Positions 4,477 to 59,958 of a DNA stretch of 64,000 nt are shown in pieces; position 1 is the stretch's first letter; every line of letters begins with the position of its first letter. The translations under genes were made by a program, and so were the position numbers. The stretch comes from an uncultured Victivallales bacterium (GTDB lineage: Bacteria; Verrucomicrobiota; Lentisphaeria; Oligosphaerales; JABHEG01), in the NCBI GenBank assembly GCA_964607765.1, contig CAZSNT010000035.1, positions 1,103-65,102 of the forward strand, in the 5' to 3' direction. Under the pieces are notes generated by a model. That model was not told where the DNA came from and ran no database searches. It saw nothing but the letters and a program-made list of their open reading frames with translations.

Positions 4477-7400
4477 ATGAAGCACACGGTCAGCCTTGGA
4501 ATCGCCTTACTGTTTGTCATGTCGCTACATGCGGACCAGGCCCTGATCGACAGGTCGGGCATCTCGGGCGGCCTGCTGGTGCGGATCGGCGCCCACGACG
4601 CCAGGGAACTGGCCACGCCCCAGATCACCAACAGGTTCGTCGTCCACGTGCTCGACACGGATGCGACCAAGGTCGCAGCAGCTCGTGCGGCGTGCAAGGG
4701 CGAATTGTACGGCCGGGTCAGCGCTGACACGTTCGACGGCAGATCTCTGCCGTACGCCGAGAACCTGGTGAACCTGTTCATCGCGGACACGAGAGGCGAC
4801 ATTCCCGATGCGGAGATTCGCCGCGTGCTGGCGCCGGGGGGCATCGCTTTCATAGAGGGCGACAGGCTCCTGAAACCGACGCCTTCGAACACCGACGAAT
4901 GGACCCACTATCTGCATGGGCCGGACAACAATGCGGTGGCCAGCGACGCGATGGTCGGTCCGCCGCGACACCTGCAGTGGGTGGGACCGCCGCGCTGGAC
5001 GCGCGATCATCACATCCTCAACAGCGTCAGTTCCGTCGTCACCGCCGGAGGACGCCTCTTCTTTATCCTCGACGAGGCCACCGGACGCGACCTGAACGCG
5101 CCGGGGGAATGGGCGTTGATCGCGCGGGACGCTTACAACGGCATCGATCTGTGGCGCGTGCCCATGGGGTCCTGGGCCCACCACAGGTTCCGATTCCGGT
5201 CCGGCCCGCCCCAACTCCCTCGGCTGCTGGTGGCGTCAAAGCAGCACGTGTATGCGCCGCTTGGGCTCAGCGAACCGGTGTCACAGCTCGACGCACGGTC
5301 GGGGGACGTGCTGCGCACGTTCGAGGCGACGACCGGTGCCGAGGAAATCCTGTTGCTCGACGGGACGCTCCTGGTGCTCAAGAGTGCTCCGGTAGCCACG
5401 CATGCGGCGAAGCACCCCAAGTTCAAGGGCGTCTACGCCCAGCCGCGGAACAAGGCGATTGTCTCTGTGGACACCAGGACCGGGAAGACGCAGTGGTCCA
5501 TGCCGCTTGTCGGCAGCGTCCGCGCTGAGACGCTGGCAGCCGATGACGGGAATGTGTTTGTCCAGGTCGACCAACAGGTGATCTGCCTTGATCGCGCCTC
5601 CGGCAAGGAGCGCTGGCGTCACGGCGAGGCGGCCAACGCCGCGACAGCCGTGCCGACAAAGAAGCCAAAAACGCGGAAGCCTCCAGGGCTGAGCTTCGGC
5701 ACACACGTTCTGGTCGTGTCGGATGGCGTTGTCCTGTGCCGGCTGGGCGCGGAGCTGGTCGCCATCGATGCCGAGAGGGGGGAGAGACTGTGGTCCACAA
5801 AGGGGGGACAGGGCTTTCACGCGCCCCTGGACGTGTTCGTCATTGACGGCAGCGTCTGGACCGGCAGCCACCCCTCTGATTCGACCGCACCGCCGCCGGT
5901 GGCGGATTTCAGTGTCCAGCGCGACCTGAAGACGGGCAAGGTCCTGTCGCGCAACTCCACCATGGTCGACCTGCAGAGCGCGGGGCATCATCACCGGTGT
6001 TACCGCAACAAGGCGTCGACGCATTACATCATTTCCGGAAAGCGCGGGGTCGAGATGCTCCACGTCACGGGCGACAACCACTCCCGAGACAACTGGATCC
6101 GCGGCACCTGCCAATACGGGATCATGCCGGCCAACGGTCTGGTATACGCGCCGCCGCACTCCTGCGGGTGCTACCCGGAGTCGATGGTGCGCGGCTTCCA
6201 CGCCATGGCAGCCAGGCGCAGCCGCGAGCTCGAGTACAGGTCGCGGGCCGCGGAGAGGGGGCCGGCCTACGGCAAGACCGACGGTGCGGTCGCCGCGCTG
6301 ACAGATGCGGCCTGGCCGACGCTCCGGGGAGATGCACGGCGGACCGGCACCGTGGCGACCGAGCTCCCCGGCAGCCCGTCGCAAGCCTGGACAACGTCGA
6401 TCGGCGGGCAGCTGTCCCAGCCCGTGGTCGCCGGAGACATGCTTCTGGTTTCCGCCGTCGACCGACACGCCGTGTATGCGCTCGACGCCAAGTCGGGCAA
6501 AGAGCGCTGGTCACGGACCGTCGGCGGGCGGGTCGACTCACCGCCGACCATTCACCAGGGGTTGTGCTTGTTCGGCTGTACGGATGGATACGTCTACTGC
6601 CTGCGTCTGCGCGATGGGGCGTTGGTATGGCGGTTCCTCGCCGCCCGCACGGATCGGCGCACGATTGCCTGGGGCCAACTCGAGTCGCTCTGGCCTGTGC
6701 ACGGGAGCGTCCTGATCCAGAACGGTCTCGCGTATGTGTCCGCCGGCCGCTCGACTTGGTTCGATCACGGTATCGACTTGTACGCGCTCTCACCTGAGAC
6801 CGGCGAGGTCGCACACCACACCCAGTTCGAGACGAAGCCGCCCAAGTTCGGCAAGGGGAAAAGGGACGAGCAGCTCACAGCGAGGGCGGAGGAGTTCAAG
6901 AAGTCGATCCTCGCCAAAACAGCGCGCGGCTCAAGTCGCGCGGACTATAAGACGTTTGCGCAGAGCGACCGATCAGTTTCGTTCTCCATGGCCGGCGGCA
7001 CCATCTCGGATGTCCTGGTCAGTGACGGGAGCGACGTATTCATGCACCAAGTCCGGTTCAACAGCCGGTTGGAGAGGCAGGCGGAACGGGCTCGGCACCT
7101 GATGGCCACCGGCGGGTTCCTGCACGACCCGAGTGAAGAATCGCGCCTGCACTGGGTCGTTGGCGACGGCGACTTCAGCCAGTATCCCCTGCCCTACCCT
7201 CGTTACGTTGGCACCGGCGAGAAGAACCCGGCCTGTGGCCTTATCCTCGCCTACACCGCGGACACCGCCTGGGCGATCCTGCGCGCCCGACGCTACAGCA
7301 AAGTGTTCGACTGCAACCTGGTCGCTTTCGACCTGAAGAACAACGCCCAGGCCTGGCAGGCGCCGCTCGGCAAGTTCATCGCCCGGTCCATTCTCAAGGC

Positions 7401-30490: not shown

Positions 30491-33400
30491 ATGAACAACA
30501 TGAACCGCAAGTACTTCCTCCTCTGGGCCCTTCTGGCCCTCGGCGCATTCGCCGCCGAGGACTTCGAACAGGGCGCCGCCGTGCCGGGCGGCTGGTCGGC
30601 TGCGGGCGGCGCGTCGGTTCGCATCGTCCGCGAACGCTGCAAGTCCGGCCAACAGAGCTTGCTCTGGTCCTGGTCGTCGGCAGGCGACTCCCTGGTCCAC
30701 GCCGACCCGGCGGCCTTTCGGAAGCTGACCGCAGACAATGGCCGGGGGTTTGGCAGTTGCCTGGGCATGTGGGTGTACAACGAGACGCCAACTGCCGCGC
30801 CCATGCGTTGCGAACTCCGCAACGGCGACCAGACCGTGGCCCGCTTCTGGTTCTGGATGGATTTCCGCGGCTGGCGCCCCTTGATGGTGCGCTACTCGCA
30901 GATCGGCTGGAGCAAGGGCCAAGCGGTCACGGGGTTGCGGATCATGCCTCCCGAGGGGCTCGAAAGCGGTCGGCTCTACATCGACGGGTTCGACGCGAAC
31001 TTCATCCATCGCGGCCCGGCGCGCGACTATCAGATGCCCTGGGTCGGGCATGAGAACGGCCTGGCGGACCCGGCTGCGGTCGCGCTGAGCAGCACCAACA
31101 TCGCACAGAACCGGCCGTGGTTGCCCGAACTGAAGCCGGTCGCGGCATTCACGGCGGCTGAGCGTGCGGACCTGGCGCGGCTGGCCGAGGCCTTGCCGAA
31201 ACTGCGGGAGCGTGTTCGCGTACCCGTACTCGCCAAGGAAGAGTCGTCCCCGGGCACGGACGACATGCGTCCGGCGGCTGAGCCAGTGGCCGCCATGCGG
31301 GCCAAGCTCAAGGCGTGGGGCATCGTGCGCGAGAACGGCGTGCTGCGCGGCCCCGCCATCGGCAACACCTCGCCCATGAAACCCGCGGAAGCCGTACACA
31401 TGGCCGAATACATGAAGCTCTGCGGCCAGGTGCGCAACGCGTTCCAGCGCGCCCGCGACCCCGACGACGCGGGCGACCTGGCGCGGATGTTCGTGGACCT
31501 GGCGGAGCACCTGCTGGACCAGGGCTGGGCAGAGGGCTCCGGCAACATGGGCTCGTTGGGCAACGGCTACGGCCTGCGTGACTGGCCGCCGTATTTCTAC
31601 TCCATGCGCGATGTCTTGGCAGAAGCCGGCATCTTGCGTGAGGTCGCGCTGGGCCTCAGTTGGCACATGGGCTGGGGACATTCGGCGATGAGCGAACACC
31701 CCGGCGGCAGCATGGACACGCTGAACAACTACAACCGCGCGTTGCTGCCGTGCGCGCTCATGATGCCCGACGAAGCCGAGCGTCTGCAGCGCCTACGCGT
31801 GGTCCAGCGTCACTTCAGTCTCGCCCTGACCAATCCCCGCATGCTCGGACCCGACGGCTCTGCCTACCACCACGGCATGCACCATTTTGCCTATGCGTCG
31901 TATTCCATGGGGGTGGCATTCCGCACGGCCCACCGCCTGCGGGACACCGTCTTCCGCCTCTCCCCCGAAGCCCACGAACACCTGCGCGCCCACGTCCACG
32001 CCATGACGTTCGCCACGGTCAACGGCCAGCAGCCCCCAAACATGAATGCTCGGGCGGGCGCCCCGCTCAACTGCGACATGAGCAAGTGCCGGACCATCCT
32101 GGCTGACATTGACGCTTCGGCGCCGCCAGCCGAAGAGCGCGACCGCCGCTGCCCGCAGTCTGCATCGGGCCATTGGACGATGAACGGCACGGCTGCGTCG
32201 TTGCACCGTCGGGACGACTGGCTGGTGAGCATCGTGGGCATGATCAAGTTCTGGCGCGGTCTCGAGATCTACGGCTGGACCCAAACGAACAACTACGGGG
32301 AGTATGCACGCTACGGTTCCGTGCTCGTCTGCGCCTCTGGCGACCCGGTGTCGCTGGCCGAGAGCGGCATGGTCCACGACGGCTGGGACTGGTGCAAGTG
32401 GCCGGGAACAACAGCCTTGCAGCGGCCGTCCCATGAGATCTTCCGGGGCTACGCAATGCGCGGCAACCCCACCGCTTTCGCCGGCGGCACGCGGCTGGAA
32501 GACGACGGGGTCTGGGGAATGGACTTCCAGGGCAGAGACGTGCACTTCCGCAAGTCTGTGTTCTGCTTCGACAAACGCGTCACCGTGGTCACCACCAACA
32601 TTCGCAGCGACGAGGACAGACCGGCGCTCACCACGCTCTTCCAAGCCGCGATCGACCCTCAAGCGGAGGCCCTGACCGTGAACGGCGAGAGCATTGCGCA
32701 GTTCCCCTGGGAGTCGCAGTTGCCTGCGGACAGACTCCAGTGCCTGACCGACGGCAAAGGCAACGGCTACCTCGTCCACCCGGGTGAGAGCAGCCTGCGC
32801 CTGCACCGCAAACCCCAGGAGTGGGTCTACATGACAGAGAAGTACCTGAGGGATCCTGCCGACAACCCGATTCAGGACTACCGCCGACGTCGGTACCGGC
32901 ACCGGAACGTCGTCGAAAACGAGGCGTACTTCACACCCTCGACGAACAACTTCGCAACCGCCTGGTTCGAGCACGGCGCGAAGCCGACCGACGCGGCCTG
33001 TGCCTACACCATCTTCGTGCAGTCTTCCCCCGAAGAGCTGGTCGCGGCCGCTGCCACTCCCCCATACACCGTGCTGCGCCAGGATGAACAGGCCCATATC
33101 CTACACGATCACCCGACCGGCACCACCGCCTACGTCATCTTCGACGAAACCGTCGAGCTCACCGCAGCGCCCTCCAGACTGCCCCCCATCCCCCATCAAT
33201 CCGCAGTCCGCAATCTGCAACCGAGCCAGAAGCGAGCTCGACGAGGTCAGCCTCCAATCTGCAATCTGCAATCTGCAATCTGCAATCTTCAATCTGCAAT
33301 CTGCAATCTGCAATCCGCCTCCCGTCCCTGCCTCGTCATGCTTCGCCGGCATGGCAGGAAACGCCTGACCCTCAGCGTTGCGTCGACGGACAAGGCCCTG

Positions 33401-40800: not shown

Positions 40801-41083
40801 GCAACTGCAGATTCCCTTATGGGTGAGAGCCATGGTCCTCGCTGACAAGGCGCTGTTCATTGCGGGGCACCCCGACGAGCGCGACAAGGCCGACCCGTAT
40901 GCCGCCCTGGACGGCGCGAAAGGGGGCATGCTGTGGGCGGTCGCCGCAAAGGACGGAAGCACTATGTCGAAATATGCGCTGGATGCGCCTCCGGTCTTCG
41001 ACGGAGTCGCGGCCGCGGGTGGAAGACTCCATCTGTCCCTGACAGACGGCTCGCTGACGTGCATGGAAGGCGACAGGAAATGA
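37856..41083 (+). CDS. Secreted SAM-methyltransferase-like + PQQ/BamB-like beta-propeller protein (paralog 2 of 3)
   Basis: Signal peptide 'MSRATHGFLGLWLLVAAGQAAEG'. Class-I methyltransferase motif I 'LVVHVGCGDG', followed by 'HGLDAD' and '[20 protein letters not shown]'. Invariant '[11 protein letters not shown]' and 'CQFGILPCNGLLYAPTHPCACY'. Propeller repeats are present. GTG 37817 is an alternative start. Confidence 0.75.
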   Translation: MSRATHGFLGLWLLVAAGQAAEGVPHASGGADILAKAGFAGGLVVHVGCGDGRLTAELRSDTGSLTHGLDADPANVAKARQHIHSTGQHGRIVVSHFDGRSLPYCDNLVNLVVADELGAVPMAEVTRVLAPLGVAYVGGKKTVKPWPKEIDEWTHFLYDASGNAVGHDSVVGAPHHVQWEAGPKWARTHDHLASISALVSANGRLFYIIDEGSIASAALPPKWKLVARDAFNGIVLWKRAIAPWEGHLRAFRSGPSEIPRRLVAKGDRVYVTLGYGKPVTALDAATGETLRTYDDTDGTHEILCEDGVLYLAAGEIPAPQWRKARKRRGAVPTPREKRILAIEADTGLQLWSKSDEDTRELFPLSLAVGGDRVLFHSPSHLICLDKRSGKESWRTPRPVNMRRPGYSTPTLVVCDDVVLVAERNIPPEQTNTSETVRWDVTYRAAMKTGLGRLIAYSAATGKELWSCPSCEAYTSPTDLFVADGLVWVSNVPDRKTADFREGRDLRTGEVKRRLDTTEAFTANHHHRCYRNKATDRYVFLGRSGTSTIDLQGGEHLRHSWVRGGCQFGILPCNGLLYAPTHPCACYIQSKLSGFFALAPKRTADSARWEQDGEALEQGPAYGSLDGREVSASQDWPTYRGDNARSGVTKTAVPTNLSRSWTAKPGGRLTAPVVADGRAYVASVDRHVLHALNADSGDVLWTFAAGGRIDSPPSVANGMVVFGSRDGTVHCLRADDGRLIWRFRAGPARRLVVSYGQVESAWPVHGSVLLHEGTVYFGAGRSSYLDGGMAVYRLDLATGRQLSKTHLYDRDPVTGAQFKDRTKDDYDMPGGLLDILSCDGSSVYMGEMRFDLRGNTQEPTVPHLFSSAGFLDDTWWHRTYWQYGIHMLSGPYEWSMVGNTLPAGRIMSVDDSTIFGFGRDKYAAGGHVGLGSSALRASYDRNKGGRYTLFAVAKEPYVTAEPFQKARKTFSRKRPNEKTDYLWQLQIPLWVRAMVLADKALFIAGHPDERDKADPYAALDGAKGGMLWAVAAKDGSTMSKYALDAPPVFDGVAAAGGRLHLSLTDGSLTCMEGDRK

Positions 41084-41109
41084 AACCCCGAGCACATAGG
41101 AGTCCGGTC

Positions 41110-44100
41110 ATGAGAAGAAGCCTGAGTGTTCTGTGTACGATTTTCCCTTTGGCGTGGGCGACTGTCCTCCGCGCAGATCCGGGTGACGAAGTACTCACAA
41201 AGACTGGGACGACCGGCGGTCTGATCGTACACGTCGGGTGCGGTGACGGCCAGTTGACCGCCAAACTGCGCACCGCGCAGGGGGCGTTGGTGCACGGGCT
41301 CGACACCAACTGGTCGAACATCGCCAAGGCGCGCCAGCACATTCATTCGACCGGGCAGTATGGACGGGTTGCCGTCAGTCATTTCGACGGCCGATCGCTG
41401 CCGTATTGCGACAACTTGGTGAACCTGATTGTGGCCGATGAGCTCGGCGCAGTTCCCATGGCCGAGGTGACGCGCGTGCTGGCTCCGTTGGGTGTCGCCT
41501 ATGTCGGCGGCAAGAAGACGGTCAAGCCGTGGCCGAAGGAGATCGACGAGTGGACGCACTTCCTGCACGGGCCTGACAACAACGCCGTGGCGCGCGACAC
41601 GCGTGCCGGGGCTCCACGGCACATGCAGTGGTTGGCGGACCCGATGTGGAGCCGCAACCATCACAAGCTGGCCAGCATCAGTTCGGTGGTTTCGTCGGGC
41701 GGGCGTCTCTTCTACATTGTCGACGACTCAACCGGGGCAAGTATGAAGGTCCCGGGGCAGTGGTCGGTCACGGCCCGGGACGCGTTCAATGGCGTGCGCC
41801 TCTGGAAACGTTCGCTCCCCGACTGGGCCTGGACGGGACACAAGTTCCGTTCCGGCCCCGTGCAGCTGCCCAGAACCCTCGTTGCCGAAGGAGGGCGCGT
41901 CTATCTGCCGCTCCGCGGCGGCGCCCCTGTTTCGGTGCTGGACGCGGTGACGGGCGACGTGGTGCGGACGTATGACGCGACCAAGGGCGCCGAAGAGATC
42001 GTGCTGTACAACGACGTCCTGTACGTGGTGACCGGCTCGCCGACAGCGGAGCAGGCTCTGATCGGGCCGAAGAGAGGCGCGAAAATCCCCGCGAAGACTG
42101 TCGTAGCCGTTGACGCGGCGAGCGGGGATGTCCTTTGGCGGTGGTCGGATGGGGAGCGGGGCGCCCTCCTGCCCATGACCCTCGCCGTGTCAGGCGGGTC
42201 GGTCTTCCTGGCCACGGGCCAGGGCGTGGCCGCCTTGGCTGCTGACTCCGGGGCAGAACGCTGGTTTGCCGATGCAGCCTACCTGGAGGGAGCCGGCAAC
42301 CCGAAGAGAATCACCCACGACGCCCGCTACGAACGGATGCCCGAATGGATGTCGCCCCAGCCCGGCAGCGTGGGAAGCGCGCGCGGCCTCGGCTGGTCGT
42401 TGGCGACGCTGGTGGTGCGTGACGAGGTCGTCCTGTGGGCCGGCACCCACCGACTGAGAGCCCTGGCGGCAAAGGACGGCAAGAGATTGTGGGAGGCGCT
42501 CTGTCGCCCGGGTTACTGCAAGTCCCCCGTCGACGTGCTGGCGGTGGACGGCACAGTCTGGGTCGGCCCGGACTTCAACAAGGGGCGCGATCTCCGCACG
42601 GGCGAGGTCACACGCGAGAACGCAGTGTTCGAGGATCTCTGGACAGCCGGGCACCATCACCGCTGCTACCGGAACAAGGCCACCTCGCGTTACATCATGA
42701 CCGGTCACCGCGGCGTTGAGTTGATGGCGTTGCAGGGAGAGGACCACGGGCGCAACAACTGGACGCGCGGGATCTGCCAGTATGGCATCATGCCCTGCAA
42801 TGGGCTGCTCTACGTCCCCACGCACATCTGCGCCTGCTACATCGAGGCGCAGCTGAACGGCTTCTGGGCCTTCGCTTCCGAGCTGGCGTCCCCCATTCCT
42901 CCGCCCGCCGCACCCGCCCTCGACAAGGGCCCCGCCTATGCATCTCCAATTCGGCAATCGGCAATCGACATTCGGCAATCGGCGGACTGGCCGACCCATC
43001 GCGGGAACGCAGCGCGGACGGCGTGTACCGACACTGCCGTACCGCCCGGCCTGTCCCAGGCGTGGCGCACCGAGTTGACCGGGCCGCTCAGCGGCGTGAC
43101 GGTCGCCGGCCGTCGCGTGTTCGTCGCCACGGTCGACTCGCATCAGGTTCGCGCCCTCGACGCCCAGTCCGGCGAGACGCAGTGGCGTTTCACAGCGGGG
43201 GGACGTATTGACTCCCCGCCCACGATTCACGGCGGTCGGGCGTACTTCGGGTCGAATGACGGTTGGGTTTACTGCCTGCGCGCGTCGGACGGCGCGTTGG
43301 CATGGCGCTATCGCGTTGCGCCCGCGGCCCGCTATACCGTGGCCCGGGACGGCGTTGAGTCCCTCTGGCCTGTGCACGGGAGCGTCCTGATCCAGAACGA
43401 CACGGTCTATGCCGTGGCGGGACGATCGTCCTACCTGGACGGGGGACTTCGCTTCGTCGGCCTGGACCCCGAGACGGGGGCGGTCCGTCACGAGACAGTG
43501 TTCGCCAGCAAGCACCCGGACTACGCGAGCATGATGGCGGCCAAGGAAACCGCGTCGAAAGAGCACCCGCTCACGCACACCACTGCGCAGTTCGCAACCG
43601 ACTGGAAGACGTTCACCGATCCGGACAAGAGTGATTCGTTCACAATGGAAGGCGCGATCGACGACATCCTCGTGGGCGACAGCTCCCAAGTCTACATGAA
43701 GCACCTGTGTTTCGACGACGCTCTCGTCCGCCAGGAGCGAGTCGGGCGCCACCTGTTCTCAACCACCCGTCTCTTGGACGACGCCGAGCACCATCGTACG
43801 TTCATGATGCTCGGCACAGCGAACATCAAGCGCGCCCACGTCTCCTACTCGTGGATCGCCAACCGGCGGCATGGCGCGAGAGGGTACTTCTTCGACGTGC
43901 CCTACGGATTGCTCCTGGCCTGTGACGAGACCACGGCCTACGGGATCTGGAGCGGCTACCAGGTCTTTGCCGAGACGATTCGCCCGCAGCCGCAGGATGG
44001 TCCCACGCGGAGCGACATTCAGACAACCCCCGAGCGAAAAGGCAAGGCAAAGCCGGAGTTGCACACCATGCGCTGGCAGACGAAGCTGGCCTTCCGCCCG

Positions 44101-44376
44101 CGCGCCATGCTGCGCACGAAGGACGTCCTTTTCATCGGCGGCATGGACGGGACCCGCGGCCCGGAAGACCTCGTCGAGGCCTATGAAGGCAGGAAGGGCG
44201 GCGTGCTCTGCGCCGTATCTGTGGCGGACGGCAAGGTGCTGGCGGAGCACAAGATTCCGTCGCCGCCTGTGTGGGACGGCATGGCCGCCGCGCGCGGGAG
44301 ACTCTACCTGGCGACCGAGGAGGGCGCCGTTTACTGCTTTGCCGCCGCGGACGAGGCCCGTCCCGGCGGCCAGTGA
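41110..44376 (+). CDS. Secreted SAM-methyltransferase-like + PQQ/BamB-like beta-propeller protein (paralog 3 of 3)
   Basis: AGGAG lies 8 nt upstream. Signal peptide 'MRRSLSVLCTIFPLAWATVLRA'. Motifs 'LIVHVGCGDG', '[11 protein letters not shown]' and 'CQYGIMPCNGLLYVPTHICACY'. ATG 41080 (ATGA overlap with the previous stop) is an alternative start. Confidence 0.75.
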   Translation: MRRSLSVLCTIFPLAWATVLRADPGDEVLTKTGTTGGLIVHVGCGDGQLTAKLRTAQGALVHGLDTNWSNIAKARQHIHSTGQYGRVAVSHFDGRSLPYCDNLVNLIVADELGAVPMAEVTRVLAPLGVAYVGGKKTVKPWPKEIDEWTHFLHGPDNNAVARDTRAGAPRHMQWLADPMWSRNHHKLASISSVVSSGGRLFYIVDDSTGASMKVPGQWSVTARDAFNGVRLWKRSLPDWAWTGHKFRSGPVQLPRTLVAEGGRVYLPLRGGAPVSVLDAVTGDVVRTYDATKGAEEIVLYNDVLYVVTGSPTAEQALIGPKRGAKIPAKTVVAVDAASGDVLWRWSDGERGALLPMTLAVSGGSVFLATGQGVAALAADSGAERWFADAAYLEGAGNPKRITHDARYERMPEWMSPQPGSVGSARGLGWSLATLVVRDEVVLWAGTHRLRALAAKDGKRLWEALCRPGYCKSPVDVLAVDGTVWVGPDFNKGRDLRTGEVTRENAVFEDLWTAGHHHRCYRNKATSRYIMTGHRGVELMALQGEDHGRNNWTRGICQYGIMPCNGLLYVPTHICACYIEAQLNGFWAFASELASPIPPPAAPALDKGPAYASPIRQSAIDIRQSADWPTHRGNAARTACTDTAVPPGLSQAWRTELTGPLSGVTVAGRRVFVATVDSHQVRALDAQSGETQWRFTAGGRIDSPPTIHGGRAYFGSNDGWVYCLRASDGALAWRYRVAPAARYTVARDGVESLWPVHGSVLIQNDTVYAVAGRSSYLDGGLRFVGLDPETGAVRHETVFASKHPDYASMMAAKETASKEHPLTHTTAQFATDWKTFTDPDKSDSFTMEGAIDDILVGDSSQVYMKHLCFDDALVRQERVGRHLFSTTRLLDDAEHHRTFMMLGTANIKRAHVSYSWIANRRHGARGYFFDVPYGLLLACDETTAYGIWSGYQVFAETIRPQPQDGPTRSDIQTTPERKGKAKPELHTMRWQTKLAFRPRAMLRTKDVLFIGGMDGTRGPEDLVEAYEGRKGGVLCAVSVADGKVLAEHKIPSPPVWDGMAAARGRLYLATEEGAVYCFAAADEARPGGQ
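42946..42980 (+). repeat. Short heptanucleotide array (GGCAATC-like, 5 units) inside the propeller paralog 3 coding sequence
   Basis: The units are 'ccaattc ggcaatc ggcaatc gacattc ggcaatc', translated 'PIRQSAIDIRQSA'. They sit in a linker that differs among the three paralogs. Confidence 0.8.
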
Positions 44377-56533: not shown

Positions 56534-59500
56534 GCCCCCGCCCTCCGACTCAAGCCAATTGTACTAAAGCCCTCTCGTGTTTCAGTGGGAGTCTTATCAT
56601 GTGTGTCTGCACCGCTCTGGCAGTTGGCCCGGCTCCGTTTGAGGTCCGCGCGCCGGATTTCCAGACTTACGACTTCGGCGAAACCGTGCCTGCGGAGTTC
56701 GCAGTGGACGGCAAAGTGACTCTCGCCATCGACCGCGCCGTTTTTAAGGGGCAAGGGGGGAGCCTCAAGTGGTCTTGGGCAGAGCCAGGCGCCGCGCTGA
56801 CCTTCCGGCATCCGGACGCGTTCAAGCGCCTGACCGGCCGCGCCCCCGACCCGATCGTCTACGAATGGATCACGTTCACCAGGCTCAGCACATTCTCGCT
56901 CTGGGTCTACAACGACGCCCCGATCGAGGATGTGCTCTGGTTCGAGATCGGCGACGGGGCCCGCGTCGACTGCCGGTTTTGGATGTCCCTGAACTTCGCC
57001 GGCTGGCGCCCGCTCAAGGCGATGTATGGCCGCGACATCGAGCCACTCGGCGGGTTCCCCAACCAGGACAACGCCGACACCCTCCGCATCCTCGCGCCCA
57101 AGTCTGCGGTGCAGGGCACGCTGCGATTCGACCTGTTCTGCCCGCGCAGCGAGCAGGACGTGCGTTTCGTGCGCGCCACGGACGAGGCCCCGTGGGTGCG
57201 TCCCCGTGATCGGGACGGGGCGTTCATCGATCCCGGCCAATACGTCAAAGGCCGCCACCACGACGGCCTCCCGAATCAAGCGCCCACGCTTGAGTTGGAC
57301 CTGCCGGAGACACTGTCCGCAGAGCAGACCGCCGTGATCCGGCGCCTGCGCAGCACCTACCTGGCCCGGGCCGCGGCAGCGCCGAAACCCCGCGAGGTGA
57401 CCGAGAAGACCGTGGCCGCCCTGCGCGCCAAGCACGCCGAGCACGGGTTCGTGCGCAGCCCCGACGGTACGGTGAGCGGCTCGGTCGGGCATCCCGGGCG
57501 GTTCTGGCGCGCAGCAAACGGCTTGACGGGTGTCTGGCACCAGGCCGCCGGGCAACCGGACGTTCAGGCTGAGCTGTGGAAGCTCTACCAGGATTACGTG
57601 GACTTGTGCATCCAGCAGGGCCACGGCGCCGGCTATGGTCTGCGCACGGCGTTCGTACGCCCGGTCCGACTCATGCGCGACGAGCTCGCCGCACACGGCC
57701 GCTGGCGACCGCTCCTCGACCGCCTCCGCGCAATCAACGGAATCGACGACCTCTACAACACGCGCACCCAAGCCAATGCCGACGTCTACAACACCATGCT
57801 CGCCGGGCGATTGAGTGTGGTTCTCCTCGAGTCCGACGACCGGGTTGTCCATCGCGACCTGCTCGCCCTGCGGCACTGGCTCGAACGCACGGCGCGCTAC
57901 GGCGAGATCAAGCCCGACGGCTCGCTCTTCCACCACCGCCAGACCTACAGCGGCTACAACCTCCCCGCGATCAGCCCCTGGGTCGACGCACTCCACGTCC
58001 TGCGCGACACCGAGTACTTCCCGCCGACCAGCCACCTCTATGCATATCGCACCGTCTACGCCATGCACTGGTACAGCTGCATCACCGACATGCCGCACAC
58101 CCTCAGTGGCCGCTGGCGCAACAGCGGCAGGTTCCATTGGGGCCTGGCGCAGAACTGCCGGAAACTCGCGGAGATTGCAGAATGCAGATTGCAGATTGCA
58201 GAATGCAGATTGCCGGATGGGGGGCGCGGCCTTCCGCCAGGCGACGGCGTGCCGGATCACGGATTACGCTGCTCCTCAGTCGGCCCGTCCATGGGTCTGT
58301 CCTCCCGCCCACATTCCGCATTCTGCACTCTACATTCTGAATTCTGCATTCAACATTCTGCATTCAACCAGATGGCGGCGATCTACCTCTACTATGCGCG
58401 CCATTTCGGTAAACAAGACGAGTGGACGAGGCGCTTCTCGGAGCTGGGCGTCGAGCCGGCCGACACCAACGGGCATCTGGCGCTGAACTACACCGTCGCG
58501 GCGATCCACCGGCGCGACGACTGGATGGTCTTCTTCCGCGGCCAGCGTCATCCGTTCTTCTCCACCGACATGTACCCGTTCCAGGCAGGCAACACCATCG
58601 GCCGATACATCAACTTCGGCCATATGGCGATCTACTCCGCGGGCGAGCCCACGAGCACGGTCGGCAGCGGCTGGGGCCCGCCCAAAAATGCGCTGGGCGG
58701 CTTCAATCCGAACTTCTGGCCGGGCACAACCGCGCGGGAGATCCCGCTGGATGCACTGCGCTCGCCGTTCTCCGTCGAAGAAGCCATGACCGCCGAGACC
58801 TTCGCCGTCGGCACGCACCTCGACGGCAACGGCGTATTCGGCCTCAAACTGCAGGAAGACGAAGTGCACGAGATCGACCCGAGGCGCATTGGCCCGGTCA
58901 AGTACTGGCTGGGCGAAGCCGAATACCAGCGCCGTATCAAGGCGGCCATGATCGACACCAGCTTCCGAGCGCGCAAGTCCGTGTTCTGCTTCGACAACCG
59001 CATCGTCTGTCTCGGCAGCGGGATCCGGGCCGACGACCCTGACCACCGCGTGGCGACCACCTTGTTCCAGCACCATCTGTCGGAGGATCGGAAAGGTGGG
59101 TTTCAGGTGTCAGGTGTCAGGTTTCCGGAAGGAGGTCAGGCAGCGTTTCCCTTGGAGACGCGGCTGGCCGGGGCGGAGGGCAGCTGGCTGATCGACAGCA
59201 TCGGCAACGGCTACGTACTCCCCGCCGGGCACGCGCCTCTCGAGATCGTGCGCAAACACCAGAAGCTCCCCTACCACACGCACCGGAACGACCGCCAACC
59301 CGAGTTGAACCAGGAAATCGACCCGAACGAAGGCGACACCGAGCTTGCGCTGCTCGACCACGGCCCCGCCCCCGACGGCGCCAGCTACCACTACACCGTC
59401 CTCATCCGCACGACGCCCGACGAGTGCGCGGAGCTCGCGGCAGACCTGCGAGCCGCGCAACAAGCGCCATATGCCGTGCTCCACCAGAGCGACGGCGCGC

Positions 59501-59958
59501 ACATCGTTCACCATCACGCGAGCAACAGCACCGGCTATGTTCTCTTCGAAGCCACCGCTCCGCAAGTGTCGGGCGCCACACCTCAATCTGCAATCCCCCC
59601 TCCTCAATCTGCAATCCACAATCTGCAATCTGCAATCTGCAATCTACAATCTGCAATCCTCCACGTTTCCAAGCCCTGCGTGGCGATGGTGCGCCGCGTC
59701 GATGCCAAGCGCATCCGTCTGAGTGTCTGCGACCCTGAGCTCGGCCCTGCCCCTGACGACGCCGAGCCCTTGGCCGACCCGCATGCTGACACCACCCTGA
59801 CGGTGACCCTCGCGGGCAACTGGAGGCTCGGCGTGCGCAATCCGCAAGTTGCGGAGACCGCGACCGAGCGCGGCCGGACGAGCCTGACGTTCCGCTGTCG
59901 TCACTTGCGCCCGATCGTCGTCGAGCTTGTCACGGCCGGGCAGGAGGAGGCGCCATGA
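56530..59958 (+). CDS. Chondroitinase-ABC-like lyase (PL8-type), paralog P5, carrying two repeat-element insertions
   Basis: Motifs 'GSLKWSWAEPG', 'FSLWVYNDAP', 'LNFAGWR', 'DGSLFHHRQTYSGY', 'FWPGTT', 'ARKSVFCFDNRIVCLGSGI' and 'LDHGPAPDGASYHYTVLI'. ATGA overlaps at both ends. The signal peptide is weak or uncertain. Confidence 0.75.
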   Translation: MSPRPPTQANCTKALSCFSGSLIMCVCTALAVGPAPFEVRAPDFQTYDFGETVPAEFAVDGKVTLAIDRAVFKGQGGSLKWSWAEPGAALTFRHPDAFKRLTGRAPDPIVYEWITFTRLSTFSLWVYNDAPIEDVLWFEIGDGARVDCRFWMSLNFAGWRPLKAMYGRDIEPLGGFPNQDNADTLRILAPKSAVQGTLRFDLFCPRSEQDVRFVRATDEAPWVRPRDRDGAFIDPGQYVKGRHHDGLPNQAPTLELDLPETLSAEQTAVIRRLRSTYLARAAAAPKPREVTEKTVAALRAKHAEHGFVRSPDGTVSGSVGHPGRFWRAANGLTGVWHQAAGQPDVQAELWKLYQDYVDLCIQQGHGAGYGLRTAFVRPVRLMRDELAAHGRWRPLLDRLRAINGIDDLYNTRTQANADVYNTMLAGRLSVVLLESDDRVVHRDLLALRHWLERTARYGEIKPDGSLFHHRQTYSGYNLPAISPWVDALHVLRDTEYFPPTSHLYAYRTVYAMHWYSCITDMPHTLSGRWRNSGRFHWGLAQNCRKLAEIAECRLQIAECRLPDGGRGLPPGDGVPDHGLRCSSVGPSMGLSSRPHSAFCTLHSEFCIQHSAFNQMAAIYLYYARHFGKQDEWTRRFSELGVEPADTNGHLALNYTVAAIHRRDDWMVFFRGQRHPFFSTDMYPFQAGNTIGRYINFGHMAIYSAGEPTSTVGSGWGPPKNALGGFNPNFWPGTTAREIPLDALRSPFSVEEAMTAETFAVGTHLDGNGVFGLKLQEDEVHEIDPRRIGPVKYWLGEAEYQRRIKAAMIDTSFRARKSVFCFDNRIVCLGSGIRADDPDHRVATTLFQHHLSEDRKGGFQVSGVRFPEGGQAAFPLETRLAGAEGSWLIDSIGNGYVLPAGHAPLEIVRKHQKLPYHTHRNDRQPELNQEIDPNEGDTELALLDHGPAPDGASYHYTVLIRTTPDECAELAADLRAAQQAPYAVLHQSDGAHIVHHHASNSTGYVLFEATAPQVSGATPQSAIPPPQSAIHNLQSAICNLQSAILHVSKPCVAMVRRVDAKRIRLSVCDPELGPAPDDAEPLADPHADTTLTVTLAGNWRLGVRNPQVAETATERGRTSLTFRCRHLRPIVVELVTAGQEEAP
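58173..58366. repeat. Two heptamer arrays in inverted orientation flanking a 96-nt GC-rich spacer, in frame inside P5 (MITE-like or hairpin element)
   Basis: The left array (58173-58214) has 6 units of 'agattgc/agaatgc'. The right array (58311-58366) has 8 units 'acattcc gcattct gcactct acattct gaattct gcattca acattct gcattca'. The reverse complement of gcattct is agaatgc. Translated, it gives a ~65-aa segment absent from the other paralogs. Confidence 0.8.
59583..59659 (+). repeat. Heptanucleotide tandem array (GCAATCT-type, 11 unit positions) inside the P5 coding sequence
   Basis: The units are 'tcaatct gcaatcc (cccctcc) tcaatct gcaatcc acaatct gcaatct gcaatct gcaatct acaatct gcaatcc', translated 'QSAIPPPQSAIHNLQSAICNLQSAI'. 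Confidence 0.9.

Follow-up and report, generated by a model that had tools for sequence, protein, structure and literature searches.

Heptamer repeats are over-represented in bacterial genomes (PMC4692102, PMC4679880), and they occur in several dispersed forms. The Xanthomonas GGGAATC repeats number ~185 copies, mostly of four units and mostly intergenic, which are under-represented in coding sequence and sometimes form inverted pairs, and they are resembled by Nostoc GGGGA(T/C)T and by the STRR arrays of Calothrix, array length varying between related species (PMC4692102). The TAACTGA unit is common to Beggiatoaceae, Cyanobacteria and Bacteroidetes, with rare scrambled versions and no known transfer mechanism (PMC4679880). 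Another behaviour is that of the Rickettsia palindromic elements (RPEs; Ogata et al. 2000, 2002), which, according to PMC10969869, lie in frame in unrelated genes, occupy fold-compatible sites and are translated. Here we analyse a 64,000-nucleotide stretch of contig CAZSNT010000035.1 from an uncultured Victivallales bacterium (hereafter, the window), in which tandem GCAATCT arrays interrupt two polysaccharide lyase genes, P4 and P5, without breaking their reading frames. These arrays are probably tolerated, translated insertions of a dispersed GCAATCT heptamer family. The family joins the two behaviours above, dispersed heptamer arrays and RPE-style in-frame insertion, and differs from the described systems in its unit, its breadth, its handedness and its freedom from stop codons.

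GCAATCT arrays in two PL8 lyases

The window encodes six lyase paralogs, P1 to P6, all of family PL8 and each with Lyase_N, Lyase_catalyt and Lyase_8 matches in Pfam. P4 (30491–33580, + strand, with these same three domains) is a chondroitinase-ABC-like lyase of 1029 aa, listed in a public protein collection from its second ATG at 30500, which gives 1026 aa. Its main array (33254–33316, + strand), seen in the sequence, by Tandem Repeats Finder and in the structural model, consists of nine contiguous units in the order CCAATCT, four GCAATCT, TCAATCT, two GCAATCT and GCAATCC, and encodes (ICNLQSA)x3; perfect periodicity extends over at most 34 nt (~4.9 units), with the single TCAATCT unit interrupting the array. 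On its 5′ side, degenerate units of the same orientation (CAATCCG, CAGTCCG, CAATCTG and CAACCG at 33197–33223, + strand) encode QSAVRNLQP, and a 30-bp non-repeat spacer (33224–33253, + strand) encoding SQKRARRGQP separates the two arrays within a 57-aa loop insertion. A short (CCCCCAT)x2 duplication, also of period 7, lies directly 5′ of this repeat region at 33183–33196.

P5 (56530–59958, + strand; PL8 by its Pfam domains) encodes 1142 aa and carries three heptamer arrays in two insertions. The C-terminal array (59583–59659, + strand) has eleven unit positions, is translated as PQSAIPPPQSAIHNLQSAICNLQSAIL and occupies the beta-hairpin loop that also holds the P4 array, so that both read in frame as (ICNLQSA)n. 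It contains at most three perfect units in a row, is interrupted by variant units and shows a 21-nt higher-order pattern; Tandem Repeats Finder scores it at 87–95 and the P4 array at 115. The window has 26 matches to GCAATCTGCAATCT at ≤2 mismatches, where shuffles predict 0.4. The original prediction, made from the letters of this DNA, had counted nine P4 units with degenerate units 5′ of them and eleven P5 unit positions, and the sequence bears out both counts; the interruptions of the arrays are an addition to it.

The second P5 insertion was absent from that prediction. Read in frame, it separates the catalytic from the super-sandwich domain (58172–58368) and takes the form of an inverted pair. 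Its left arm, (AGATTGC/AGAATGC)x6 at 58172–58213, is the reverse complement of GCAATCT and thus lies on the − strand, the + strand reading AEIAECRLQIAECRL; a 97-bp spacer (58214–58310, + strand) forms the loop and is also translated in frame; and the right arm (58311–58368, + strand), of ~8 GCATTCT-type units complementary to AGAATGC, pairs with the left arm and reads HSAFCTLHSEFCIQHSAFN. As single-stranded DNA, 58160–58380 folds into a long hairpin at −48.6 kcal/mol (z = −3.5), and none of 200 shuffles folds equally well. The P4 array region has neither significant hairpin potential (z = −1.5) nor an inverted partner array. P5 also contains a further short period-7 duplication, (GGTGTCA)x3.4 at 59099–59122.

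Collapsed or chimeric repeats, or other assembly and sequencing artefacts, could in principle produce such arrays, and the Logan assembly of SRR8146442 does break inside the P4 array. The Logan k-mer size is 31, and a contig end is to be expected inside a 34-nt periodic run, which is longer than the k-mer; we therefore rejected the break as a sign of unit-number heterogeneity, since it is uninformative. The same independent assembly gives P5 with all three arrays unchanged (contig L121, 0 mismatches to the window over 8,989 bp) and matches the P4 array over its 3′ half, T-interrupted unit included (contig L138). The arrays also keep the reading frame and the conserved strands downstream of them, and the same type of element occurs across separate sequencing projects, in isolates and metagenome bins alike. 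An artefact can thus be discounted almost entirely and the arrays are real, which answers a doubt raised with the original prediction.

The loop that holds the P4 and P5 C-terminal arrays, 26 kb apart, is a matching beta-hairpin loop of the C-terminal sandwich. In P4 it spans 57 residues between TGYAFYQ and KPAIVMT, against 11 in chondroitinase ABC I (1HN0; phmmer match), whose TGYAFYQ runs up to 926 and whose KPAIVMT begins at 938. The placement of the arrays between the TGYAFY and KPAIVMT strands, proposed in the original prediction, is thereby upheld. The paralog alignment shows both arrays to be insertions relative to P1, P2, P3 and P6, whose loop carries no repeats, as had also been predicted. 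Among 17 P4 homologs (30–51% identity) neither the repeat peptide nor a comparable insertion is present at the loop, two of them having unrelated extras of 4–7 aa. These absences support the earlier proposal of a recent insertion or expansion rather than ancestry. The accompanying remark that the flanks are diverged and the units nearly identical is equally correct, P4 and P5 being 25.7% identical as proteins and having only the heptamers in common as DNA.

The AlphaFold2 model of P4 (pLDDT 86.3, pTM 0.84) finds the chondroitinase ABC structures 7EIP, 1HN0 and 2Q1F as its best Foldseek matches (~1e-55). With its Pfam domains and this predicted fold, P4 has the architecture of a putative chondroitinase-ABC-type PL8 lyase: Lyase_N, Lyase_catalyt (alpha/alpha toroid), Lyase_8 super-sandwich and C-terminal sandwich. 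Two long stretches inside this otherwise confident model have low confidence, and the insertion is one of them. Numbered from the start at 30500, residues 891–922, where the degenerate units fall, have pLDDT <50, and the repeat appears as a weak helix (923–934, block-mean pLDDT ~50) extruded between strands 875–880 and 944–951. The P5 model (pLDDT 73) has many low-confidence segments, both insertions among them: the C-terminal array comprises a stretch at pLDDT <50 (1016–1027) and a helix (1028–1038) between strands 1000–1005 and 1043–1046, and the mid-gene element comprises helix 538–558, a spacer at pLDDT <50 (562–608) and helix 601–625. The lyase copies are therefore predicted to sit between secondary-structure elements as poorly ordered or weakly helical extrusions.

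The shared loop also raises the possibility that an array was gained once and then copied into the loop of the other paralog by ectopic gene conversion or recombination, which would be compatible with either a passenger or a switch. Nearly identical units in one loop, between proteins with diverged flanks, are what such copying would leave. There is, however, no flanking DNA similarity able to support conversion; measured from the conserved S(R/K)PC strand, the P5 array ends ~4 aa earlier than that of P4, and the 30-bp spacer and nine units of P4 differ from the 21-nt higher-order pattern of P5. Family membership, documented below, already accounts for the identity of the units, and we consider copying between the paralogs very unlikely. 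Specifically, the P4 and P5 units are alike because they are members of one dispersed repeat family, and not through any property of the lyases.

The dispersed GCAATCT family

A scan for exact (GCAATCT)3 in one genome per GTDB species returned at least 119 stretches, and by record title the matches listed fall in 14 phyla. Among these listed matches Chloroflexota account for 55 stretches, Acidobacteriota for 29, Planctomycetota for 8, Bacteroidota for 7, Pseudomonadota for 6, and Verrucomicrobiota and Cyanobacteriota for 3 each, with seven further phyla and one unclassified record at 1 each; some genomes, such as those of Oscillochloris sp. ZM17-4 and Ca. Viridilinea, contribute many loci. The window itself contains four elements. 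The original prediction had proposed recording coding versus intergenic position and orientation across the genome and its relatives; this was done in the GTDB representatives, where the copies lie mostly outside reading frames. In viral contigs, where the numbers are small, GCAATCT gave 13 stretches, while three control heptamers, permuted to the same composition and free of stop codons, gave 0, 2 and 1. The period is likewise specific, with 232 perfect arrays of at least three units for period 7 in the fetched loci against 1–11 for periods 5, 6, 8 and 9, and most of the non-canonical units there differ from GCAATCT by one base. Array length varies from 3 to 18 units, four being the commonest (89 of 192 arrays), and in these loci, which were chosen for perfect units, unit positions 3–6 (AATC) are ≥98% conserved and position 1 is variable.

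Where arrays of opposite orientation lie close together (≤200 bp), the order is always 5′-(AGATTGC)n-loop-(GCAATCT)m-3′, with 42 pairs in this order and none in the reverse. With viral contigs added the count is 45, of a single handedness throughout, and phage contigs share the arrangement. Independent expansion would give both orders equally, so the 42:0 handedness indicates that the pairs are made, or selected, as units. The loops between the arms (0–120 bp) are unrelated among copies even within one genome, and the heptamer arms alone are common to them; the elements end in full units or in partial units (ATTGC... and ...GCAAT). Across 45 pairs we found 2-bp flanking repeats twice, against 2.8 expected, and no flanking repeat of ≥3 bp, and thus no sign of target-site duplication. 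Rfam at the gathering threshold gave no match in the window or in seven element-bearing loci. Clustering of open reading frames (ORFs) from 119 loci of 8 kb each yielded no recurrent transposase-like neighbour, the only recurrent families being hybrid histidine kinases and ABC transporters, which are presumably abundant in these taxa. A role as intrinsic terminators was rejected, the right flanks having no T-runs.

Several individual loci illustrate where the elements lie. Two occupy intercistronic spacers of ribosomal-protein operons (L23/L2 and S3/L16; L028:5618–5645 and L072:4825–4852), and since such operons are normally highly expressed these elements are presumably transcribed. L009, L028 and L072 were tried as orthologous loci and rejected, as their elements occupy different spacers of ribosomal-protein operons. 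In Flavobacterium aquicola DSM 100880 (L115:3631–3840), (AGATTGC)x13 and (GCAATCT)x3 surround a typical intrinsic-terminator hairpin and other heptamers (TTCTTCT/GCCTTCT), and the arms therefore bracket pre-existing local sequence and not a conserved core. In Oscillochloris sp. ZM17-4 (L108:3538–3713), the 120-bp loop contains a second, unrelated palindrome (gtcaccctgagcgaagcgaaggg ... cttcgcttcgctcagaatgac), which looks like one repeat element nested in another.

Text searches of the literature for the repeat returned no relevant description of the GCAATCT repeat, in agreement with the original prediction that the motif is undescribed, although heptamer repeat families as a kind are already known. 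The family thus appears to be new as such, though of a known kind. Like the STRR, GGGAATC and TAACTGA families it consists of short dispersed arrays, mostly intergenic and in part forming inverted pairs, and it shares its four-unit mode with Xanthomonas; its unit is another one, its spread across 14 phyla is much wider, and its inverted pairs are of one handedness (42:0). The cross-phylum spread and rare scrambled versions of TAACTGA parallel the results of our control scans, whereas the TAACTGA unit contains stop codons and GCAATCT is free of them in six frames. The G-quadruplex account of the four-unit preference in Xanthomonas is inapplicable here because GCAATCT cannot form G-quadruplexes, which means that a preference for four units is independent of G-quadruplex formation. 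Rotated to TGCAATC, the unit has G-AATC in common with the Xanthomonas GGGAATC.

The element also differs from described mobile repeats. Miniature inverted-repeat transposable elements have defined terminal inverted repeats, a conserved body and target-site duplications; the GCAATCT elements lack all three, having no conserved body of ~100–150 bp and no terminal inverted repeats around a conserved core. Repetitive extragenic palindromic (REP) sequences are closer, being likewise short multicopy hairpin repeats without target-site duplication, some of them in operon spacers or over the 3′ ends of genes. A GTAG or CGTC head is a feature of REP super-families (PMC3733652); GCAATCT element ends, however, have no such head, and no RAYT-like neighbour recurs in the 8-kb loci.

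One further reading concerns the origin of the family itself. Its occurrence in 14 phyla and in phages, the 42:0 handedness, the lack of target-site duplications, the unrelated loops and the arms around a pre-existing terminator hairpin in L115 together permit the idea that the arrays and hairpins are the footprint of an undescribed repeat-writing or repeat-mobilising mechanism that moves between lineages. Two routes would fit: (AGATTGC)n could be copied from a template onto the 3′ ends flanking a DNA break, which are then joined, or a hairpin element could be moved by an enzyme of the HUH or Y1 type. We hold this reading to be fairly improbable. If it were true, proteins would be supplied with ready helix or helix-loop-helix inserts, because the unit is free of stop codons and encodes heptad-like amphipathic peptides, and the lyase insertions would be examples.

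Translated copies and changes in unit number

The GCAATCT unit has no stop codon in any of its six frames, and three units make 21 nt, or seven codons, so every + frame reads (AICNLQS)n and every − frame reads (RLQIADC)n. It is because of this freedom from stop codons that the family is translatable inside conserved domains. We classed 138 elements in other genomes by read-through ORFs and by GC content at the codon positions, the calls being heuristic. About 118 of the 138 have no credible ORF reading through them, and 13 show clean in-frame read-through with third-position GC (GC3) well above second-position GC (GC2) on both sides. Coding copies are thus a general but minority outcome. None of the 138 elements gave a convincing frameshifted gene: five of the seven candidates are genes ending inside the element, one is a pair of adjacent genes, and L040 is ambiguous. 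In-frame copies (13 elsewhere and, in the window, three GCAATCT-type arrays and the 42951 variant described below) therefore stand against 0 frameshifted ones. In L003, L022, L067 and L118 the gene ends inside the left arm, with its last codons supplied by the arm (...CRLQIADC*) and its stop in or near the loop.

We ran Pfam on ten of the 13 coding copies, and seven of these ten elements lie within a domain match. The sites are diverse. In a Gemmataceae Ser/Thr kinase (L079) the element lies inside Pkinase, between HRDLKPANILL and KITDFG; in an Oscillochloris histidine-kinase ATPase domain (L078) it lies inside HATPase_c; and in a copper P-type ATPase (L077) it follows just after DKTGT inside the HAD domain. 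Other copies fall inside the Penicil_amidase domain of a penicillin amidase (L082), PDDEXK_1 of an AddB-type nuclease (L094), the helicase-associated AAA_19 match of a protein that also bears a PDDEXK_1 match (L094), and PMT_2 of a PMT-type glycosyltransferase (L049, as one of its three arrays). Two further copies, in L001 and L018, fall between two matched domains; their host proteins are an FAD flavoprotein and a class A penicillin-binding protein. A search with (AICNLQS)x6 against 5.8 billion proteins found only 20 short hypothetical ORFs over long arrays, a result with little bearing on short insertions.

These copies recall RPEs, whose in-frame, fold-compatible palindromic insertion is matched by L077, L078, L079 and the P5 mid-gene element. 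RPEs are, however, ~150 bp long with a conserved consensus and are not known outside Rickettsia, whereas the GCAATCT elements have simple heptamer arms, unrelated loops and variable sizes and occur in many phyla. Another precedent is provided by palindromic amphipathic repeat coding elements (PARCELs), 25-residue repeats in dedicated repeat proteins that are often membrane-targeted, whose punctate cross-lineage distribution suggests horizontal spread (PMC2996958). PARCELs likewise combine dyad-symmetric repeat DNA, amphipathic peptide repeats and a punctate distribution across lineages, and differ in that the 7-nt GCAATCT unit gives 7-residue repeats, found as small insertions in ordinary enzymes.

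With PARCELs as a precedent (PMC2996958), one could suppose that the peptides have been co-opted: that ICNLQSA is a heptad (I at position a, L at position d) or a cysteine-spaced helix-loop-helix that serves in oligomerisation, surface attachment or disulfide stapling of the secreted lyases. The heptad pattern is legible in the translations, AlphaFold2 places helices on the repeats in both P4 (923–934) and P5 (538–558, 601–625 and 1028–1038), and one loop is occupied in two paralogs. The amphipathic pattern, however, is an automatic consequence of the DNA unit, and confidence in the helices is low (pLDDT ~50). None of the 17 homologs needs the insertion, and identical peptides in unrelated cytoplasmic enzymes and kinases argue for tolerance and not for a common function. 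A dedicated role for the peptides is on this evidence distinctly unlikely.

Since seven nucleotides do not make whole codons, the arrays could also act as a switch, as the original prediction suggested, and its frameshift arithmetic is confirmed by simulation. A change of one unit gives P4 products of 956 or 1017 aa with an out-of-frame tail of 26 or 82 aa, and P5 products of 1061–1071 aa; with three units the frame is kept and one ICNLQSA is gained or lost. On such an account the lyase genes would be contingency loci, in which frequent slipped-strand mispairing toggles the enzymes, a change of one or two units removing the last 86–103 residues and with them strands of the C-terminal beta-sandwich. 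The truncated or out-of-frame-tailed products of the simulation and the 34-nt perfectly periodic run in P4 accord with this, as does the precedent of the Haemophilus hmw promoters, where heptamer repeats drive phase variation (PMC12721329). The lyases have signal-peptide-like N-termini, and a locus of many paralogs makes the switching of individual members conceivable. The unit number also evolves, as the family-wide spread of 3 to 18 units indicates. In two cyanobacteria that are 87–90% identical (L054:5140–5400 and L063:5040–5390), an orthologous array directly after a stop codon differs in length by 21 bp, one species having 5 units and the other 8, and slippage therefore occurs on an evolutionary time scale. 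L063 has in addition a 69-nt insertion with (GCTTCTT)x3.6.

Contingency tracts, such as the tetra- and pentanucleotide tracts of Haemophilus and Neisseria, are typically long, perfect and polymorphic within strains or between close ones. Like the 7-bp hmw promoter repeats and those intragenic tracts, the GCAATCT arrays have a unit length not divisible by three, but they are interrupted, belong to a genome-wide family and show no on/off polymorphism in the comparisons made. In five arrays on contig pairs that are 98.6–100% identical (with separate IMG/VR identifiers) the unit numbers are equal. A flank-anchored metagenome scan for P4 alleles, allowing a gap of plus or minus two units, gave 0 matches, as did the same type of scan for an Akkermansia intergenic array. 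Among 15 billion clustered proteins we found no length variants, P1, P5 and P6 being singletons and the P4 cluster consisting of P4 itself and its own 80-aa C-terminal Logan fragment. Several further points tell against a switch. A family that is pan-phylum, genome-wide and mostly outside reading frames needs no switch to explain its presence in lyases, and its coding copies are all in frame. P5 has only three perfect units in a row, and its three arrays, if freely switching, would leave the gene mostly 'off'. The break in the Logan assembly, accounted for by k-mer size, adds nothing. The mechanics of phase variation proposed in the original prediction are therefore possible, and its reading of the arrays as a switch is unsupported, with no 'off' copies and no length change between near-identical contigs. 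We regard contingency loci as an unlikely explanation; a raised frameshift rate at the P4 array is plausible and an evolved switch is not demonstrated.

The surrounding locus and the place of the family

The fourth element of the window is an array of ~4.7 GCAATCG-type variant units (42951–42983, + strand), read in frame as SPIRQSAIDIRQSAD in the linker of a protein that combines a methyltransferase and a PQQ propeller (40933–44376); it too was absent from the original prediction. The segment is 2–3 aa longer than in two paralogs and looks more like a replacement of linker sequence than a pure insertion; the GCAATCG variant unit is present in four fetched loci. Three large PQQ-propeller proteins, at 4477, 37817 and 40933, are 36–43% identical, and the latter two also have a methyltransferase domain.

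Nearly all genes of the window lie on the + strand and form one very large co-directional locus, a locus for the breakdown of sulfated, fucose-rich glycans, with six PL8 and one PL6 lyases, at least six sulfatases, four GH29 fucosidases, two GH92 enzymes and two genes of URO-D-like type. P2 and P3 (17546–25043) share 84% identity, and both have a further gene behind them, which after P2 is a sulfatase; a recent tandem duplication within the locus is indicated. The remaining lyase pairs are 24–28% identical and the two GH92 genes 69%. The best named relative of the GH92 protein, at 73% identity, comes from a Verrucomicrobia genome bin, and the 22 kb around its gene contain no period-7 arrays. 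By this match the source of the window would probably belong to Verrucomicrobiota. A gene with a weak Y1_Tnp match near this GH92 ortholog was considered as a RAYT lead and set aside, since it has its own, unrelated inverted repeats and no period-7 arrays occur in those 22 kb. Its product, a 347-aa protein (L139:5920–6963, GCA_018648805.1; inverted repeats GGGGTCAGCCCTTAAGTAATAAGT), is unrelated to the GCAATCT family and may be RAYT-like, with another cognate repeat.

Taken together, these observations suggest how P4 and P5 may have acquired their arrays. The family takes two forms, short single arrays, usually of four units, and inverted pairs of fixed handedness, and a copy that lands or expands in a gene would survive if its total length is a multiple of three and the loop that receives it is tolerant. 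The lyase copies would then be tolerated passengers and no dedicated switch, and the loop shared by P4 and P5 would be a permissive site that was hit twice. Array length would change by replication slippage over evolutionary time; from such changes rare frameshift alleles must arise, and we see no sign of their regulatory use.

Some of our observations weigh against the arrays being mere tolerated insertions. All four elements of the window are genic; PL8 lyases account for three, and two of these share one loop. The excess in lyases is weak (rough p ~0.07), because nearly the whole window is coding and ~28% of it belongs to lyases, but the coincidence of P4 and P5 in the same loop is not fully explained. 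The P4 array, at nine units, is longer than ~94% of the family and hence more prone to slippage than a typical copy, and the comparison of unit-number stability rests on arrays of 3–4 units in other organisms. The choice of loci with at least three perfect units inflates the conservation figures of the family. As for the translated copies, the one in L007 has no Pfam match, and coding calls beyond the ten scanned with Pfam rest on ORF and GC3 heuristics.

For the bacterium described here, the consequence of reading the arrays as tolerated insertions is that its lyase genes should not be annotated as phase-variable or as pseudogenes from sequence alone. More generally, a single heptamer occurs as arrays and as single-handed hairpins in 14 phyla and in phages, and is translated in kinases, ATPases, penicillin-binding proteins and lyases. 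The GCAATCT family thereby extends the unexplained excess of heptamers in bacteria known from STRR, the Xanthomonas GGGAATC and the Beggiatoaceae TAACTGA, and should a dedicated mechanism prove to be behind it, this would be a new kind of genome-writing activity. Its in-frame insertions form a natural set that marks permissive sites in well-studied folds.

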